In this document: positions 4,789 to 15,834 of the stretch, piece by piece
Position numbering within the stretch: position 1 is the first letter of the stretch
Layout of the letters: each line of letters begins with the position of its first letter
Source: a virus
Lineage: Duplodnaviria > Heunggongvirae > Uroviricota > Caudoviricetes
DNA length: 17,583 nucleotides
Direction: 5' to 3' (one strand)
IMG/VR virus record: IMGVR_UViG_2585427735_000005
The notes under the pieces: model-generated
What the model saw: the letters and a program-made list of their open reading frames with translations, nothing else
Told to the model about the DNA's origin: nothing
Databases searched by the model: none
Program-made: the position numbers and the translations under genes

Positions 4789-5129
4789 TGGTTGCCTCCT
4801 TTGCGAATCTGTTCCGCCCATTCTTCTAGGGATTTCTCCGCATATTCACCGGACAGGCCATCAATCGGGTGTGGTTCATTAGCCAACTCTTCTTTCGCTG
4901 ACAGAATCATGCGTGTAACGTCGAAAACTTCACGTAAAGACTTATTGATAAATCCGTGATTGAAAGCCGCAGCAAGACGGCTTGCGGTATAGTTAATACC
5001 CTCGTTGCGAGCCTCAGCACGTACTTCATCGAATTTACGCACCAGATACTCAGCATTTGTTTCATTCACTTTCAGATCTCGTGGTACACATTTCCCGCGA
5101 AGAAACCCTTCCATTTCGAAAACATTCAT
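4785..5129 (-). CDS. Hypothetical protein, last gene of the yfdPQRS-like module (YfdS-like)
   Basis: About 114 aa. The ATG at 5129 overlaps the upstream stop (ATGA); the ORF track uses the ATG at 5135. The C-terminus ...EQIRKGGNQ is encoded by the recurring junction cassette. Size and position match YfdS of CPS-53; recollection only. Confidence 0.5.
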   Translation of the reverse strand: MNVFEMEGFLRGKCVPRDLKVNETNAEYLVRKFDEVRAEARNEGINYTASRLAAAFNHGFINKSLREVFDVTRMILSAKEELANEPHPIDGLSGEYAEKSLEEWAEQIRKGGNQ

Positions 5130-5662
5130 GCGCATTTGCGTAACTCCGATAACTCGTTAAAACGTTCCATAAACATCCCGTAGGCATGGCCTGGCGACAG
5201 TGGAATCACTTTGAACATCTCTGTTGCCGGGATACCTTCCAGTACAGGCCAGAAAGAGCTATCATCAAGCCCGAGATCGCGGCGTTCGGTTGCCAGCATG
5301 ATGAGATCGGCATATTTCACGGGCGTGCTCATAACCGGGGGTAACCCGTATTTCTCACGGATTACGGCGTCTATTTTTTCTTCCATCCGTTTATAGTCAG
5401 GAAGAAGGCGTTTCAGTGGAGCGGGAATATCCTGGCAATACGCTTCTGTTGCATCATGCATTAACGCTTCAAAAGCAAATTCCTGCGGCACCAGCTGGCT
5501 GCAAAGCACCGCATGTTGGGCGACACTGTAGAAGTGAGAAAGATGACCGGCAAAGCGGCAGATATTTGAAAGGGAAACCGCGATATCGTTAATCACGATG
5601 TCGTCTTTATTTATCCTGTCATAATAAAAATGCTTCCCGGAAAAAGTTTTAATAAATGACAT
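5126..5662 (-). CDS. HD-domain phosphohydrolase (YfdR-like 5'-deoxynucleotidase family)
   Basis: Contains the HD motif in ...EALMHDATEAY... with His-containing stretches upstream (FAGHLSHFYSVAQHAV). I prefer the ATG at 5662, preceded by GGAGAA, over the GTG at 5689 used by the ORF track; this gives 178 aa, the length I recall for YfdR. Confidence 0.6.
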   Translation of the reverse strand: MSFIKTFSGKHFYYDRINKDDIVINDIAVSLSNICRFAGHLSHFYSVAQHAVLCSQLVPQEFAFEALMHDATEAYCQDIPAPLKRLLPDYKRMEEKIDAVIREKYGLPPVMSTPVKYADLIMLATERRDLGLDDSSFWPVLEGIPATEMFKVIPLSPGHAYGMFMERFNELSELRKCA

Positions 5663-5789
5663 TTTGTTCTCCACGTATATGCGCTGCACCGCGCTGAGTT
5701 TGGGTAAAAGGAAGCCCTCACCATCCGGTGATTATTGAGTTAATTACGTTTCCATAAATGCCCCCGCAGGGGCATTTGCAGTAATGAAA

Positions 5790-6614
5790 TCAGGCGGTGA
5801 AAGTACCAATAAAGGTTTCTACTTTGCTGTCTTTGAATTTCTTAACAAGCAGATCACGAAATTCGTTAGCCATATCTTCCTGCACCGCTTCCAGCTGAAT
5901 AATGCGCATAACCAGTACAGGACGATCGCCAGTGATAATGCTGAGGCGTAATTTAAACGGACGTTCTTTCAGACCTTCAAACGGAACGCATTTAAATTCA
6001 AATGTCACTGGCATAATGTCTTTGGTCTTCGCTTCGACAGATTCCATCAGGGAGCGTTTGCCGCTGAAGTCATTATCTTCAAAATCAGCGGTCTGGTTTG
6101 CTTCAATCGTGATTTTACGGACTGCCGCAGCCGCTTTTGTTGCCTGAATAGCGTCACCATTAGCATCAAAGCCCACAAGGTAGTCGGCCCAGTCTTCAAT
6201 CCATTCTGCCAGTGACTTCTGGGAGTTACGCTCGCCGTTAACAGACAACAGGGCAGAGAACGGTGCTGTCTTTTTCAGTTTGAGAGTGGCGGTGTTATCT
6301 GCGTGACCTGGTTCATCAATAGTACCCAGGTTAAGTACACTGACGGCACGCATATTATCAGCATCGATAAAGCAGCGGGTGCCTTCATCTGCAAGATCTT
6401 TAGAATAACGGGTAAAGTCATCGATGCTGGCAGTGGAAAGCGCACCACGGAAACGGAAGCGATTTAAATTAAATTTTTCCAGATCATGAATGCGGAAATT
6501 CTCAGGCAATGCCACAGCATCGGCACCAATCTTACTGATAATTTCATTAACACCCTGAGCAGAAATAAGGGCATGGATTTGATTAATTGCGGTTGCGTCT
6601 AAGTTCTGAGACAT
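5790..6614 (-). CDS. DUF2303-like protein (YfdQ-like)
   Basis: 274-aa ORF sitting between the YfdP-like and YfdR-like genes, with the same length and position as YfdQ of CPS-53. Assignment is by synteny and length recollection, not by a recognised motif. Confidence 0.5.
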
Positions 6615-6679
6615 AATAAGTCCTCACTATATAAAGATATTCAGTGATGAGATAAATAATCAGTTAATTAAGAACGATA

Positions 6680-7042
6680 TTAATGACCTGCTGCGCGTAG
6701 TTTTCCGTCAGGTTCACCGGCAAGAGTCAGTAATTGTCCCTGGTCTTCCTGCAGAATAGTCAGGCGACCACCGCGATTGACATACATCGGCGTTTCGGTG
6801 GTGTCTTCTTCGGAAATTTTCCCGCGGTTAGTCGGGCGAACATATGAGAGTTTGTGTTTGATTTTCACACGGTTCTCATCAAATGGTTCGATTTCCAGGT
6901 TGAGCGAGACCTTACCTTTGGTTTTCGTATTCATCACACCGGAAGCGACTTCACTGAGAACAGCGCCGATTTTGGTTTCAAATACGCCGCCGTCCAGCTC
7001 CCCGATAAATGCCTGCACATCAGTACTGCGTTCGCTAGCCAT
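6680..7042 (-). CDS. Hypothetical protein (YfdP-like), first gene of the module
   Basis: I prefer the ATG at 7042 (MASERSTDV...), preceded by GAGGAG at about 7-nt spacing, giving 120 aa. The ORF track's start at 7060 lacks a ribosome-binding site. Confidence 0.45.
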   Translation of the reverse strand: MASERSTDVQAFIGELDGGVFETKIGAVLSEVASGVMNTKTKGKVSLNLEIEPFDENRVKIKHKLSYVRPTNRGKISEEDTTETPMYVNRGGRLTILQEDQGQLLTLAGEPDGKLRAAGH

Positions 7043-7090
7043 TTTGCTGCTCCTCATCATATCGACCCTGCAAGATCGGTTGGTTTATCC

Positions 7091-7179
7091 ACAAAACAGA
7101 GAAGAACACCTGCGGTGGCAGCCGCCAGGATGGATTGGGTTATGAGCCCGTCGGCCGGTGATGCTCTTCTCTGTTTTGT
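7091..7179. repeat. Perfect 15-bp inverted repeat (ACAAAACAGAGAAGA at 7091-7105, TCTTCTCTGTTTTGT at 7165-7179) with a 59-bp GC-rich spacer
   Basis: Read directly from the sequence. It lies in the leader just upstream (in transcription) of the YfdP-like start; the spacer holds GC-rich imperfect palindromes (CTGCGGTGGCAGCCGCCAG). Confidence 0.6.
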
Positions 7180-7180
7180 A

Positions 7181-7226
7181 AAAAGAGCGGTACCAGCCGG
7201 AAGCAAGTGTACAAACTGGTACCGCT
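7181..7226 (-). terminator. Putative intrinsic terminator for leftward transcription (tL-like)
   Basis: Perfect 11-bp stem (AGCGGTACCAG 7186-7196, CTGGTACCGCT 7216-7226) with a 19-nt loop, followed on the minus strand by CUUUUU (plus-strand A-run 7181-7184). The loop is large, so function is uncertain. Confidence 0.4.
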
Positions 7227-7670
7227 AAAGCAGTGGCTGTTGTGGTGACCGGTGCTGATCTCCGGCTTGCGGTTATTTCAGACTCTCACGGGCGTTTAAT
7301 TGCCCCGCCGAACAGCTCTTTTCCGCAATAGCTGCAATGTCTTTCGCGCATCAGCCTGCGCATTCACCACAACGCTGAGAGCACTTAGCCAGTTACGGCA
7401 CCACACTTTGTCGCGGTTCCATAAATGCCCTCATCGTTGCACCCTAGTCTCTTCCCAGGTGTCAAATCGAACCGCCACGCTGGTTAGGCGTCTTATCAGC
7501 ATCATCATTGACTTGCACATTCCGGCTACCTGGTTTGTTTGCCCGAGCAAGGAGTGGATTGTCCCCTTTAACGTCCCCAGACCGCTAACGACGCATGTGC
7601 CATACGCCGTGTTACAACCAAATTTTGTTAGTACCTTGTTTGTATGTCTGGAAAGAAAGATAAAATGAAG

Positions 7671-7709
7671 TTGCGCATTATGCAAGTGTTTTTATTGCGA
7701 GATATGCAA
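7671..7709. promoter_or_regulatory. Putative OL operator pair and pL region
   Basis: Two 15-bp palindromic sites, TTGCGCATTATGCAA (7671-7685) and TTGCGAGATATGCAA (7695-7709), 9 bp apart, share the form TTGCG-N5-TGCAA with a site in the cI-cro intergenic region. pL hexamers could not be placed confidently. Confidence 0.45.
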
Positions 7710-7722
7710 TTTGGTGGGTAAT

Positions 7723-7744
7723 GAAAAGCCACCTTCTGGTGGCT
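7723..7744 (-). terminator. Putative terminator downstream of cI
   Basis: Hairpin AGCCACC-TTCT-GGTGGCT (7727-7744) lies 22 nt past the cI stop. On the minus strand it is followed by only about 4 U, so it is a modest terminator. Confidence 0.35.
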
Positions 7745-7765
7745 AATTGATATTGAGGTAGGGGG

Positions 7766-8458
7766 TTAATTGTGTCGCTTAAGGGTTTGTGACTGACTGA
7801 TTAAGACCTTTCCAAAGACCATAAACCGATGTTCGTTTTCGCTGGTAATTCCCCATTCGCGGTAAATCTGATTATCAGAAATTACCAGCAGTTTATCAGG
7901 TATCATTTGCAGTCGTTTGACGTAAATTTTATCATCAAAACCAAATACATATATACCATCCCCATCAAACTGATTGATACTGATATCAACGAAGATGAGA
8001 TCTCCTGGCTCAATGGTTGGACACATACTGTCCCCACGAACGTTGATAACTTTAATGTGATTTGCTGGTCGTCCACCAAACATCGATACAGCATTATCAG
8101 TTCTGTATTCAATGGCATGAATCACATCAATGACATCACCGCCCTGGATAAGGCCATTTCCCGCACTGGCACTGACATCCAGCATTTCAATACGGAATAC
8201 ATCCTTCACCTGCGCAACATCCTCACTAATACTGTTTTTACATACAGTATTACTTTTGAGGTCTGAGGTAAAGAGATCAGCAATATCAACACCTAAGCTC
8301 CTGGCAATATTACTCAGGGCTTGTTCAGTGAATTGTTTCTGCTTACCTGTTTCGAGGCGCGAGATATTCGCCGCATCCACTCCTATTGCTTCAGCGAGAT
8401 CGGCGATTTTCATGTTCTTCGCCTGGCGAAGTTGTCTGACTCGATTTCCTATGTTCAT
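7766..8458 (-). CDS. cI: CI-type phage repressor (N-terminal HTH, C-terminal S24/LexA-like autopeptidase)
   Basis: 230 aa. The N-terminus has an XRE-type HTH (MKIADLAEAIGVDAANISRLETGKQ). The C-terminus has an Ala-Gly candidate cleavage site (SASAGNG), catalytic Ser in GDSMCPTI and Lys in YVKRL about 38 residues later, as in LexA/lambda CI. It is divergent from cro. Confidence 0.9.
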   Translation of the reverse strand: MNIGNRVRQLRQAKNMKIADLAEAIGVDAANISRLETGKQKQFTEQALSNIARSLGVDIADLFTSDLKSNTVCKNSISEDVAQVKDVFRIEMLDVSASAGNGLIQGGDVIDVIHAIEYRTDNAVSMFGGRPANHIKVINVRGDSMCPTIEPGDLIFVDISINQFDGDGIYVFGFDDKIYVKRLQMIPDKLLVISDNQIYREWGITSENEHRFMVFGKVLISQSQTLKRHN

Positions 8459-8555
8459 GCGTTTATTACATTTCTTTATTGCGCGTTAAGCAAATCAACT
8501 TGCGCAAAATATTTGCGTGAAATAATATGCTCATCACGCAATATGTGGAGGTTAT
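8459..8555. promoter_or_regulatory. OR / pRM / pR divergent control region
   Basis: Operator-like elements: TTGCGCGTTAAGCAA (8479-8493), the palindrome TTGCGCAA (8500-8507), and the inverted repeat TTGCGTGA (8513-8520) / TCACGCAA (8534-8541). Candidate pR: -35 TTGCGC (8500-8505), 17-bp spacer, -10 TAATAT (8523-8528). GGAGG precedes the cro ATG. A leaderless-type pRM is possible on the other strand. Confidence 0.5.
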
Positions 8556-8816
8556 ATGCAATCACCATTACGGAATGTGCGTAAGGCGCACGGATTTACT
8601 TTGCAGCATGTTGCTGCGGGCGTTCAGGTCAATCCAGCGACGCTGAGTCGTATTGAAAGACTGGAACAAATTCCATCTATCGATCTTGCAGAACGTCTGG
8701 CCAATTTTTTTAAGGGTGAAATCAGCGAAATGCAGATTCTTTATCCGGCACGTTTTCAATCTAGCCAAAACCAGAATGGGTTTAAACCACAGGAACAGGA
8801 GGTAAGCCGTGGGTAA
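8556..8816 (+). CDS. cro: Cro-like HTH regulator
   Basis: 86 aa, first gene of the rightward operon, divergent from cI. XRE-type HTH (FTLQHVAAGVQVNPATLSRIERLEQ). Confidence 0.75.
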   Translation: MQSPLRNVRKAHGFTLQHVAAGVQVNPATLSRIERLEQIPSIDLAERLANFFKGEISEMQILYPARFQSSQNQNGFKPQEQEVSRG

Positions 8817-9366
8817 TCATCACTGGAAAGTGGAAAAACAGCCTGAGTGGTACGTGAAAGCTGTCAGAAAAACTATCGCGGCGTTGCCGGGGGGTTACGC
8901 TGAAGCTGCTGAGTGGCTGGATGTAACAGAGAACGCATTATTCAACCGCCTTCGTGCAGATGGCGATCAGATTTTCCCGCTGGGATGGGCAATGATTTTA
9001 CAACGTGCTGGTGGAACTCACTTCATTGCTGACGCTGTGGCGCAGTCTGCAAATGGCGTCTTTGTGTCTCTTCCTGACGTCGAGGATGTGGACAACGCCG
9101 ATATTAACCAGCGTCTGCTGGAAGTCATCGAACAGATCGGGAGTTACTCAAAGCAGATTCGTTCGGCAATCGAAGATGGGGTAGTGGAACCGCATGAGAA
9201 GACAGCAATTAACGACGAACTGTATCTTTCAATTTCGAAGCTCCAGGAGCATGCAGCACTGGTCTACAAAATCTTCTGCGCTCCAGAAAAGAGTAACGCC
9301 CGCGAGTGTGCAGCTCCGGGCGTCGTGGCGTCGATTGCTTCTGGTTGTGGAGAAACTAACGCATGA
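8809..9366 (+). CDS. CII-like / YdaT-family regulatory protein (putative)
   Basis: 185 aa with a GTG start 6 nt after AGGAGG, overlapping the cro 3' end. Its position right after cro and my recollection of YdaT/CII-like proteins of Rac-type prophages suggest this call. Not verified. Confidence 0.4.
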   Translation: MGNHHWKVEKQPEWYVKAVRKTIAALPGGYAEAAEWLDVTENALFNRLRADGDQIFPLGWAMILQRAGGTHFIADAVAQSANGVFVSLPDVEDVDNADINQRLLEVIEQIGSYSKQIRSAIEDGVVEPHEKTAINDELYLSISKLQEHAALVYKIFCAPEKSNARECAAPGVVASIASGCGETNA

Positions 9367-10514
9367 ATAGTTTAACGGCAAATAACCGTTTGTCGCAACA
9401 GCTGGTGGTCAGCGTCGCTGAACACCTGTTGTTACGGCATGAATGCAGATTACCAAATCACCTGGCTGTAAGTAACCACAGAGAACTTTACCTGACTGTG
9501 GGGGGCGAGTTGTGCAGGAACTTAACCGCTGGTTTCGTGACGGAAGAGGACTTTATGTTCATGTTATTCGTTGGGAGCCAGAAACACAGCGCGTTATCTA
9601 TCTTCGCAAAGACTACCCGCATGAGTGCTTTAGTCCTTTGTGGAAATTCAGGCGTGATTTTGTTGAGTGTGAAGGACCACCAGCATATTGATTCTGCAAT
9701 TCCGGGACGTTACACTGCTCAGGCACCTTATAAAGCGGGTGCCGGGCGTGGAAACCCGAAATTCAATATAGAGCACAACCGCGCTCATGCGGTTTTTTCG
9801 TGTCATGAGCATCGTTACGCCCAAATTATGGTGGGGCGTGCAGGGCCAACTTCGGTTGGGCCGGGTTCTATGTTGACCGGTATTTCCACCCCTGTACGTC
9901 TCACCACCTATATGGTCGTGGAAAGCCTTGGTGGTGAGTTCATTGAATTCAACATAGGGGCTGTCACCATGACTACTCTCCCAACCCAATCTCACCCTGA
10001 AATCACGATTATCAATGGTCGCGTTGTCACCACATCTCTTGCAGTAGCTAATTACTTTACTAAACGGCATGAGCGGGTTTTAGATAGAATTAGAAACCTC
10101 GAATGTTCCGCTGAATTTACTGAACACAATTTTGTGTTAAGTGAATACACCGACGCATCAGGCCGCAAACTCCCTTGTTACCAAATCACCCGCGACGGTT
10201 TTGCGTTTCTTGCCATGGGCTTCACTGGTAAACGTGCTGCCCGGTTCAAAGAGGCATACATAAATGCCTTTAACCAGATGGAAAAACTGCTTTCAAAGCC
10301 ATCCACGCTGAGCGATGCCGCAGATAACGCCAGCGTGCTTTACTCCCACCTGTCGGTAATCCACAAGGTCTGGCTGCAGCAGCTTTATCCCATGTTGGCA
10401 AAAGCCGAATCCCCGCTGGCTGTAAGTCTGTATGACCGCATCAACGACGCGGCGCTACTGGCCAGTCTCATAAATTTGTCGCTGAACCCTTCAGAGGTAA
10501 GGGGGCGCAAATGA
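9363..10514 (+). CDS. Rha-family phage regulatory protein, annotated with a roughly 200-codon N-terminal extension (true start may be the ATG at 9970)
   Basis: Residues from about 205 (ITIINGRVVTTSLAVANYFTKRHERVLDRIRNL...YQITRDGFAFLAMGFTGKRAARFKEAYINAFNQME) match the Phage_pRha signature, which normally lies at the N-terminus. The ATG at 9363 is ATGA-coupled to the upstream gene, but the extension has no recognisable features. Confidence 0.6.
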   Translation: MNSLTANNRLSQQLVVSVAEHLLLRHECRLPNHLAVSNHRELYLTVGGELCRNLTAGFVTEEDFMFMLFVGSQKHSALSIFAKTTRMSALVLCGNSGVILLSVKDHQHIDSAIPGRYTAQAPYKAGAGRGNPKFNIEHNRAHAVFSCHEHRYAQIMVGRAGPTSVGPGSMLTGISTPVRLTTYMVVESLGGEFIEFNIGAVTMTTLPTQSHPEITIINGRVVTTSLAVANYFTKRHERVLDRIRNLECSAEFTEHNFVLSEYTDASGRKLPCYQITRDGFAFLAMGFTGKRAARFKEAYINAFNQMEKLLSKPSTLSDAADNASVLYSHLSVIHKVWLQQLYPMLAKAESPLAVSLYDRINDAALLASLINLSLNPSEVRGRK

Positions 10515-15424: not shown

Positions 15425-15441
15425 TTTTGTGGAGAAAGTTG

Positions 15442-15834
15442 ATGCGTGATATTCAGATGGTTCTCGAACGCTGGGGAGCATGGGCGGCAAATAATCATGA
15501 GAATGTTAGTTGGTCGCCAATTGCTGCGGGGTTTAAAGGCCTCATCCCCTCAAAAGTAAAATTTCGACCGCAATGTTGCGATGATGATGGTCTTATCATT
15601 AGTTCAGTTATGGCAGTTCTCAAGAAAAAGGAACCATATCAATACCAATTACTGGAAATGTATTATGTATATGGGATCACATTACGAGCGTTAGGGGCGA
15701 AAATGGGGATATCGCTTAATCAAGTTGTTATTAGATTGCAGAAAGCTGAAGGGTTTGTTGAAGGGTGTCTGGCAATGCTCGAGGTATCTTTAGAAATGGA
15801 TTGCTATATGAATCACGAAAATGATTCAAGATAA
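15442..15834 (+). CDS. Q-family late-gene antiterminator (phage 82 / QuuD-like)
   Basis: I prefer the ATG at 15442, 7 nt after GGAG, over the TTG at 15427. The N-terminus [20 protein letters not shown] matches the Q antiterminators of 82-type lambdoid phages as I recall them. It sits at the end of the early operon. Confidence 0.7.

Follow-up and report, generated by a model that had tools for sequence, protein, structure and literature searches.

The small RNA (sRNA) sRNA-17 was described in Escherichia coli K1 RS218 as a 193-nt RNA of an mEp460-like prophage by 5′ and 3′ rapid amplification of cDNA ends (RACE) and Northern analysis (Front Microbiol 2020; PMC7719688). In phage HK022, the transcript from the early-left promoter PL begins with put, a pair of stem-loops of about 70 nt (PMC9378689). 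STnc100 and PasD are Hfq-bound prophage sRNAs, described in a 2026 preprint as structural relatives with different seed regions. Here we analysed a 17,583-nt stretch of viral DNA (IMG/VR record IMGVR_UViG_2585427735_000005, Caudoviricetes; hereafter the window), an E. coli lambdoid prophage of the mEp460/SfV/CPS-53 type, at the gap 7061-7765, which separates the repressor gene from the first early-left gene, yfdP. Our reading, to which we give a probability of roughly 0.7, is that 7061-7650 is the untranslated leader of the PL operon of a prophage without an N gene, and that it consists, on the minus strand, of a chain of conserved structured RNA modules. One of them, the central element, has been published before: the hairpin in the gap is the terminator of sRNA-17. 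The modules that carry the argument are as follows.

7440..7623, minus strand: upstream leader module, with homology to spacers and leaders of tRNA genes
7370..7439, minus strand: leader helix, in which CAACGAUGAGGGCAUU (7439..7424) pairs with AAGUGCUCUCAGCGUUG (7386..7370) around a 37-nt insert
7239..7374, minus strand: sRNA-17 body, a tRNA-like scaffold (from the primers and probe of PMC7719688, the minimum free energy (MFE) fold and covariation)
7373..7364 with 7248..7239, minus strand: closing stem of the scaffold
7361..7346, minus strand: 5′ hairpin with the loop GGCUGA
7345..7267, minus strand: hypervariable centre
7266..7249, minus strand: 3′ hairpin with the loop AGAUCAGCA
7180..7226, minus strand: intrinsic terminator and 3′ end of sRNA-17 (stem and U-tract; the published 3′ RACE end is 7181)
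7091..7179, minus strand: three-way-junction RNA, closed by a 17-bp stem, with one arm that bears GGGCUCAUAACCC (7149..7137) and one that varies

All 14 primers and probes in Table S2 of PMC7719688 map to 7044-7623 of the window with 0-1 mismatch. The primers for full-length sRNA-17 lie at 7181-7212 (plus strand) and 7342-7374 (minus strand) without mismatch, giving the bounds 7181-7374, and since the Northern probe equals the plus strand at 7263-7312, sRNA-17 is the minus-strand RNA 7374..7181. Compared with UTI89 (CP000243.1), the full-length row in the published alignment, there is one A/G difference, at the base of the terminator stem. The hairpin has 11-nt arms (7186-7196 and 7216-7226) that are 100% complementary and enclose a 19-nt loop; next to it on the minus strand come C and UUUUU (7185-7180), and the stem reaches 13 bp in the MFE fold, as against 11 bp by arm match. 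Because the sRNA-17 primers and probe map there, we conclude that the hairpin and U-tract are the intrinsic terminator, and thus the 3′ end, of the published sRNA. Our terminator scan admitted loops of 3-8 nt and therefore did not list it. The minus-strand RNA 7260..7040 folds at -81.7 kcal/mol compared with a shuffle mean of -60.7 (z = -4.29; none of 200 shuffles was as low), and the sole variable position of the terminator stem among relatives changes an A-U to a G-U pair. The initial annotation, made from the sequence alone, had pointed to this hairpin with its U-tract and to a perfect 15-bp inverted repeat next to it, had named RNA folding and a covariance search in relatives as checks, and had offered a regulatory RNA as one explanation. 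Both structures stand where it placed them and are conserved with compensatory changes, so that they are more than chance, and a regulatory RNA is indeed what the literature reports.

The terminator stem GGCGGUACC / GGUACCGCC-CUUUUUAC is kept around loops ranging from 19 nt in the window to about 50 nt in loci where it lies downstream of the scaffold (L126, L132, L097, L074, L094, and L031). A conserved hairpin, AUCACG-YUUAGGAC-CGUGAU, often precedes this stem, and further modules of the same type, a conserved stem with a variable insert, exist.

Published RNA-seq data bear on the terminator. The wild-type lysogen gave 0.49 reads for yfdP and 0 for yfdR, and the sRNA-17 deletion strain gave 47 and 8.5 reads, respectively; Table 1 of the paper ranks yfdP (96-fold) and yfdR highest among the targets up-regulated in the deletion strain (PMC7719688). 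Because yfdP is silent in a lysogen in which Northern analysis detects sRNA-17, the terminator works, and works efficiently. Leftward expression thus does meet a real intrinsic terminator, as had been suspected, and an efficient antiterminator that acts by itself finds no support, given the detection of sRNA-17 alongside about 0.5 reads for yfdP. The deletion spans about 7231-7348 and keeps the terminator intact. Since yfdP and yfdR (window 5126..7042) are the genes immediately downstream of sRNA-17 on the same strand, their rise in the deletion strain is most simply explained by an effect in cis, either read-through from the cassette or loss of the upstream structure, rather than by an effect in trans. 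No good sigma-70 promoter adjoins the RACE 5′ end of sRNA-17, either by scan or by eye, and for this reason the 5′ end may be a processing product. The reported end falls exactly at the boundary between the leader helix and the closing stem of the scaffold.

The MFE fold of sRNA-17 shows a closing stem and two hairpins, and the same architecture recurs throughout a family of phage elements. The 5′ half reads (U)GUGGUGA-AU-GCGCA GGCUGA UGCGC and is followed by 15-190 nt of unrelated sequence; the 3′ half reads A(A/U)GCCGG AGAUCAGC(A/G) CCGG(C/U)-CACCACA. The closing stem of 7-10 bp is directly stacked on the 3′ hairpin, which gives a 12-bp geometry like that of the acceptor and T arms of tRNA, 2-3 unpaired nucleotides follow the 5′ closing strand in a tRNA-like manner, and the two hairpin loops are complementary (GCUGA/UCAGC). 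In an alignment of 96 distinct family rows, from which the centre was removed and all of which carry a recognisable GCCGG...CCGGC-CACCAC motif, 95.1% of the cells pair, a percentage that is inflated by the partial choice of 3′ partners for their pairing ability, which hardly affects the compensatory counts: 14 of the 24 pairs changed on both sides. None of 500 shuffles matched this covariation, and slid controls gave at most five pairs changed on both sides. Compensatory stems include GUUGG/CCAAC, GCAGG/CCUGC, and GUCAG/CUGAC, and one member shows a double compensation between the loops (GUCGA/UCGAC). G-U pairs are frequent (UG 12 times at one pair, GU 10 and 9 times at two others), and because these would be C-A mismatches on the opposite strand, the RNA strand is fixed. 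The scaffold stems are under selection. We also considered whether sRNA-17 might be an anti-sRNA mimic of GcvB, as its GU-rich 5′ end GUUGUGGUGA and CA-rich 7248..7239 had suggested; we rejected this, as the two segments pair with each other as the conserved, covarying closing stem.

The family is large. Two scans of IMG/VR (at least 120 contigs each) and one scan of species genomes recovered this one architecture from phage and prophage DNA in at least 160 distinct copies. The 25-nt 5′ motif GTGGTGAATGCGCAGGCTGATGCGC has exact matches in 53 species genomes, with the full scaffold present there, and is identical from Enterobacterales to Burkholderiales; its hosts include Janthinobacterium, Massilia, Undibacterium, Xenophilus, and Noviherbaspirillum (Burkholderiales) as well as Aeromonas, Marinobacterium, and Lysobacterales. 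Such conservation is unusual for a non-coding element of phages. sRNA-17 thus belongs to a large phage RNA family that is far wider than reported in PMC7719688. Loci with GTGGTGAATGCGCAGGCTGATGCGC and a matching 3′ half are L233, L255-L258, L260, L261, L271, L246, L278, and L275; the Massilia copy of the motif is flanked by tRNA-Gly and tRNA-Pro.

What follows the module differs among the 160 distinct copies listed. A terminator-like hairpin lies within 170 nt in 76, the sRNA arrangement seen in the window; a tRNA gene lies downstream in 17 (within 60 nt in 12); a ribosome-binding site (RBS) and an open reading frame (ORF) follow in 18; and 49 have other surroundings. We considered adjacency to tRNA genes as a universal feature of the family and discarded it, since a tRNA follows within 450 nt in just 17 of the 160 listed copies. 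Of the 18 downstream ORFs, at least 11 are rich in arginine and lysine at the N-terminus, and four of the five tested match Pfam N36 or N_peptide; owing to these matches, we regard these arginine- and lysine-rich ORFs as N antiterminators. The flanks of these N-type members are homologous to the PL leader of lambda, in the order nutL boxA/boxB, CAUUCAAAGCAGAAGGCUUUGGGGUGUG, cargo, CACACCACCAAAGCUAACUGACAGGAG, and the N start codon. In N-encoding lambdoid phages the module therefore lies between nutL and the start of N, and in the window a terminator replaces N. The positional parallel with lambda N and nutL that had been drawn for this gap is borne out by these relatives.

We consider it possible, at well below even odds, that sRNA-17 is a copy of a phage-wide, tRNA-derived scaffold with an acceptor-like stem of 7-10 bp, a T-arm-like hairpin and kissing D-like and T-like loops, which is released from its transcript and punctuates the operon. 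Host enzymes of tRNA and rRNA processing would then recognise the scaffold and cut it from early, late, or tRNA-cluster transcripts, freeing stable RNAs with varied cargo, such as seeds, or decoys like the copy of the initiator-tRNA anticodon loop described below. The exchangeable centre would sit between ends conserved to the nucleotide from Enterobacterales to Burkholderiales, and the same cut would punctuate the operon.

The two modules upstream of sRNA-17 are also conserved. Of 111 distinct flanks, 40 form the consensus leader helix, CACAACAGGUAAGAGCAUU ... CAGUGCUCUUUCCGUUGUG, with 16 or all 17 of its pairs, as against none in a reversed-sequence control, and its pair types include many compensatory variants. 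Its inserts in relatives often end in a T-arm-like GGUUCGAxUCC hairpin; in three phiV10-like loci (L007, L140, and L208) a tRNA-Arg directly follows the helix and replaces the sRNA-17 body, and in Massilia a tRNA-Gly lies inside the helix. A GUUGUG strand is common to the leader helix and the closing stem of sRNA-17, so that the two pairings compete. The boxA-like UGCUCUCA at 7384..7377 (minus strand) is base-paired in the helix, and compensatory variants replace it in relatives. The region 7623..7440 is homologous to the trnI-ban spacer (P1 and P1-like plasmids; about 79-89% identity) and to the tRNA-Arg leader (phiV10-like phages; about 81%), and it holds a boxB-like hairpin, CCUGG-GAAGAGA-CUAGG (7459..7443, minus strand), whose stem covaries in relatives. 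Parts of the whole region match non-coding stretches next to tRNA genes of P1-like phage-plasmids and of phiV10-like, T1-like, Klebsiella, and Erwinia phages. Because the folding energy of 7375-7650 taken alone is weak and not significant (z = -0.81), the case for this part rests on homology.

The primers used for the electrophoretic mobility shift assays of the sRNA-17 paper map to 7374-7396 and 7602-7623. Window 7374-7623 is hence the "promoter" fragment of the ArcA gel shifts in PMC7719688, and it contains the upstream leader module. This fragment looks like a transcribed structured leader rather than a dedicated promoter. The same interval is homologous to the spacer that runs in P1 (L008 1501-1682) from the CCA end of tRNA-Ile2 to ban. 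The order of a boxB-like hairpin and a boxA-like stretch before a GU-rich stem strand resembles the boxB-boxA-boxC order of rRNA leaders.

Downstream of the terminator, the inverted repeat is perfect over 15 bp (7091-7105 / 7165-7179) and extends to 25 nt at 84% (7091-7115 / 7155-7179). From 19 distinct homologues, RNAalifold derives a three-way junction with 30 pairs, seven of them compensatory, which is a paralogue of the leader helix. Among these homologues the variable arm differs by 21-25 nt, the GGG/CCC pairs of the GGGCUCAUAACCC arm are invariant, and its CUCAUAA loop is nearly so. The start of yfdP follows the closing stem by about 50 nt and the GGGCUCAUAACCC arm by about 90 nt. GGGCUCAUAACCC, in which three G-C pairs carry a CAU loop, has the same sequence as the anticodon stem-loop of the E. 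coli initiator tRNA. In related copies the loop is CCCAUAA, GUCAUAU, or UUCAUAU, with U33, CAU, and A37 retained throughout. The anticodon-loop copy might serve as a decoy for, or be bound by, the 30S subunit with IF3, methionyl-tRNA synthetase, or VapC-type nucleases.

The region 7061-7650 is non-coding. RefSeq/PGAP annotates no feature between yfdP and the repressor gene, and the 122-aa, 84-aa, and 36-aa ORFs in the gap match no Pfam or PHROG family. Variable sites in 15 homologues fall on the three codon positions as 16/15/17, 19/20/21, and 6/12/8, evenly and with no excess at the third position. No arginine-rich motif of the N type was found in any real gene of the window, and no ORF downstream of PL in the window has a Pfam or PHROG match to a lambda-type N protein; as a positive control, ORFs of relatives do match Pfam N36 or N_peptide. 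A 49-aa ORF at 7057..7206 (minus strand) matches phrog_33599, of unknown function. It is probably a spurious call, because it crosses both the terminator and the conserved junction, and the 21-25 nt insertions and deletions by which homologues of the inverted-repeat element differ rule out the frame recorded in PHROGs. A hidden N-like ORF was sought as an internal 29-aa frame in 7431..7685 and was dropped; it is not kept in the P1 and phiV10 homologues, which have unrelated inserts there. The absence of an N-like gene reported in the initial annotation therefore holds by PGAP, Pfam/PHROG, codon-position, and arginine-rich-motif checks alike, and its alternative of a small unrecognised antiterminator is not supported for a protein, there being no family match, coding signature, or arginine-rich motif. 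It was wrong in placing the 122-aa frame (7300..7668) on the minus strand, as it lies on the plus strand. It had also put the start of yfdP at 7060; the PGAP start at 7042, with the RBS GAGGAG at 7055..7050, is most likely the correct one.

Several phage records carry ORFs on this RNA region, namely gp36 and gp37 of mEp460, three ORFs in phiSTEC1575-Stx2k, and phrog_33599. In the window, the ORFs 7057..7206 (minus), 7300..7668 (plus), and 7431..7685 (minus) overlie it. The annotated ORFs across the leader are very likely not genes but spurious calls that have been propagated. ARAGORN found no tRNA gene in the window, and an Rfam scan of 6950-7850 gave no tRNA hit and no known RNA family even at E values up to 10; AgvB, AsxR, and STnc100, all of which are in Rfam, were among the models without a match.

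The surroundings of the leader are those of an immunity region. Positions 7000-7800 share 98.5-98.9% identity with phage mEp460 and many chromosomes of Shiga toxin-producing E. coli, and the neighbouring features are as follows.

6680..7042, minus strand: yfdP, first early-left gene (ATG at 7042..7040; from the PGAP annotation of a 98.9% identical locus and phrog_204)
7657..7685, minus strand: putative PL promoter (-35 TTGCAT at 7685..7680, 17-nt spacer, -10 TATCTT at 7662..7657)
7671-7685 and 7695-7709: two operator-like palindromes, TTGCGCATTATGCAA and TTGCGAGATATGCAA, respectively, presumed to be OL
7727..7744, minus strand: terminator-like hairpin directly after the repressor gene, then UUUCAUU (terminator scan; 7-bp stem with five G-C pairs)
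7766..8458, minus strand: repressor (cI-like) gene
8556..8816, plus strand: cro
8809..9366: CII-like gene
15427..15834: Q-like late antiterminator gene

TTGCRNNNNNNGCAA has exact matches in the window only at 7671-7685, at 7695-7709, and at 8479-8493 beside cro. We infer that OL and PL lie at about 7657-7709 and that leftward transcription would begin near 7650; this PL was read from the sequence on the model of the PR arrangement, agrees with the consensus at 7 of 12 positions and falls below the threshold of the promoter scan. A homologue of the hairpin at 7744..7727 is annotated as a terminator in phage SfII, and the leftward operon headed by yfdP is about 7 kb long. Across 15 distinct homologues the block 7133-7612 is nearly invariant with variable flanks on both sides, and near 7612 a mosaic joint marks the border to the immunity module. 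Elsewhere in the window, Rfam models above their gathering scores are isrK (9723-9799, plus strand, 61.6 bits) and the C4 antisense RNA (9824-9911, plus strand, 82.4 bits). Both matches fall within the annotated 383-aa ORF of the Ash/Rha family at 9363..10514, which points either to an embedded control module of the P1 C4/antirepressor type or to an over-extended start of the ORF.

These results suggest the following course of events. The leader would be transcribed in the order of the module 7623..7440, the helix 7439..7370, sRNA-17 (7374..7181), and the three-way junction (7179..7091). According to the published data, the leftward transcript of the lysogen stops at the terminator and accumulates as sRNA-17, with yfdP and yfdR silent. 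The terminator may thereby insulate the early-left operon in the lysogen and attenuate PL transcription after induction, when PL transcripts would pass it by partial read-through; no dedicated antiterminator is evident. The long helices could be processing sites, as the large stem of the lambda N leader is reported to be, and would detach the structured leader from the yfdP message. sRNA-17 itself may act in trans through its variable centre, by analogy with STnc100 and PasD, which have the same scaffold layout and are bound by Hfq.

Several points weigh against this account, besides the inflated pairing percentage of the scaffold alignment. The STnc100 model, with a gathering threshold of 47 bits, gives no hit in the window even at E values up to 10, and the closing stem of sRNA-17, at 10 bp, is short for RNase III. 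PL is deduced from a match of 7 in 12 consensus positions, and the transcript data come from the RS218 lysogen, which is neither the strain of the window nor an induced lysogen. The rise of yfdP in the deletion strain could stem from read-through out of the resistance cassette, the terminator having stayed in place. Finally, sRNA-17 in the lysogen could arise from an ArcA-sensitive promoter of its own, as the authors proposed, from a leaky PL, or from read-through of the cI transcript.

Other explanations were weighed on the same data. An antitermination or RNA-folding site of the rrn type, served by host Nus factors alone, would have the boxB-like hairpin (7459..7443) and the boxA-like UGCUCU(C/U), on the 3′ strand of the leader helix, recruit NusB/NusE, protect the long untranslated RNA from Rho and aid the closing of its long-range stems in the manner of rRNA leaders. 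In most family members the stretch is GUGCUCUUUCC, the first 8 nt of which equal the rrn boxA UGCUCUUU, and the boxA-like stretch is followed by the GU-rich strand of a long-range stem, like boxC, which follows boxA in rrn leaders. A covarying hairpin with a GAAGAGA or GAAAGA loop lies just upstream in a subset, at the place where the N-type relatives have a true nutL. This explanation is nevertheless unlikely. The hairpin is found in just 23 of 219 leader helices, in the window the sequence is UGCUCUCAGC, and the boxA-like stretch is paired; since the variants that lose boxA (UACCCUUA, UGUCAUUU, and GCAGCUUU) retain pairing through compensatory changes, the helix is what selection keeps. Moreover, rrn-type complexes act mainly on Rho rather than on intrinsic terminators. 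It is quite unlikely that the scaffold or leader is instead a processive antiterminator RNA acting in cis like HK022 put, which would modify RNA polymerase and so let PL transcription pass the hairpin and later terminators without N. The phage does combine a long, terminator-containing leftward operon with the lack of N, the element heads operons upstream of terminators (76 of the 160 copies listed), tRNA arrays, and genes, and a 25-nt motif identical across bacterial classes suggests binding to a universally conserved host machine. Yet the RNA stops in vivo at its own terminator with yfdP silent, and a second antiterminator would be redundant in the N-encoding phages, where the module lies downstream of nutL. 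The element is a closed scaffold with a variable centre of 15-190 nt, whereas put opens the PL transcript with two stem-loops (about 70 nt; PMC9378689). The element also shows no similarity to the HK022 immunity region, which holds putL and putR.

The many traces of tRNA might indicate a decaying remnant of a phage tRNA cluster, made of pseudo-tRNAs and spacers and without function beyond a fortuitous sRNA. Segments match tRNA-gene spacers in P1-like plasmids and in phiV10-like, T1-like, and Klebsiella phages, related helix inserts often end in the T-arm-like GGUUCGAxUCC, true tRNAs occupy the same slot in L007, L140, L208, and Massilia, and an anticodon-arm copy stands at 7149..7137. Decay is very unlikely, however, for a region whose 7133-7612 block is nearly invariant in 15 distinct homologues between varying flanks, whose stems evolve by compensation and whose RNA is expressed and stable (PMC7719688); ARAGORN and the Rfam tRNA model are also negative in the window. 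Conserved flanks around unrelated centres, and module edges that coincide with mosaic joints, are what one would see if the conserved ends acted as DNA, that is, as homology linkers or terminal repeats for swapping variable cassettes, with the RNA folds incidental. We consider this highly improbable, given the shown transcription (PMC7719688), the strand asymmetry shown by the frequent G-U pairs, whose complements on the opposite strand would be mismatched, and the kept loop-loop complementarity GCUGA/UCAGC, for which DNA repeats have no need. A role at the DNA level and one at the RNA level could coexist.

The reading of 7061-7650 as a structured PL leader has consequences beyond this prophage. 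sRNA-17 itself is already known; new are its place in the PL leader, the scaffold and its family, the junction RNA with a copy of a tRNA loop, and the connection with the N-leader stem and with STnc100/PasD. A published, virulence-linked sRNA of neonatal-meningitis E. coli thereby becomes part of the early-left leader of a lambdoid prophage, and several separately named prophage sRNAs are joined with the lambda N-leader stem into one structural class. The model of how lambdoid phages without N gate their early-left operon is concrete and testable, and the fact that the scaffold is conserved at the nucleotide level in different bacterial classes suggests a conserved partner in the host. For annotation, the sRNA-17 "targets" yfdP and yfdR are neighbours in cis.

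Compared with the described systems, the closest is sRNA-17 of RS218, which shares with the window the locus, the type of mEp460-like prophage and the downstream genes yfdP and yfdR. It was presented as an isolated intergenic sRNA with an ArcA-repressed promoter and with yfdP and yfdR as possible targets in trans, and without the placement in a PL leader, the scaffold, or the family. HK022 putL and putR are, like the elements of the window, structured RNAs encoded in cis downstream of the early promoters of a lambdoid phage without N. An HK022-like antitermination element had been proposed for the gap, but blastn-short of 7040-7770 against the nun-cI-cro region yielded chance matches of 9-11 nt alone, and the architectures differ: put has two adjacent stem-loops, whereas sRNA-17 has a closed scaffold around a variable centre and ends at a terminator of its own.

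The consensus of STnc100 (RF02076), taken from a sub-threshold Rfam hit in a P1-like plasmid, is caUGGUG-AAU-(5-bp hairpin, 6-nt loop) ... CCGGG-AGGCA-CCCGG-CACCAug. sRNA-17 matches this layout with GUGGUG-AAU-GCGCA GGCUGA UGCGC ... GCCGG AGAUCAGCA CCGGY-CACCAC, whereas the sequences and loops of the hairpins differ. By our own reading of the architecture, the two share a design rather than family membership. PasD lies near the Q gene, in contrast to sRNA-17 in the PL leader. The tRNA clusters of P1 and P1-like plasmids contain or adjoin sub-threshold STnc100 hits of 33-39 bits, at L004 1825-1944, L005 3081-3201, and L008 (phage P1) 2493-2612; those of P1 and L004 lie between tciA and upl, and the hit in L005, the one inspected, has the layout of the sRNA-17 scaffold. 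P1-type phage-plasmids thus carry several paralogous, unannotated modules of the scaffold class.

The C4 antisense RNA of P1 and P7 and the M3 RNA of phi80 are small phage RNAs that are cut from precursors by RNase P. Like sRNA-17, they are small and stable and have tRNA-like features; their ends are made by processing, and processing of sRNA-17 by RNase P is a possibility. The copy of C4 in the window (9824-9911) is of a different family from the sRNA-17 region. In lambda, the stem between nutL and N, which we take to be the RNase III-sensitive structure of the N leader, is reportedly an RNase III processing site. The window differs from the lambda N leader in having no N and no clear nutL, in the terminator after the module, in its 10-bp closing stem, and in its flanks, and the lambda leader is without the two conserved hairpins of the scaffold. 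The junction RNA at 7091-7179, for its part, has a closing stem of 17 bp or more. The N-type members agree with an RNase III-type leader stem in position, flanks, and long closing stem. Lambda and these members alike have a long closing stem around a cargo, that of lambda being a different one, and the large stem-loop between nutL and the RBS of N in lambda occupies the same position downstream of PL as the module described here.

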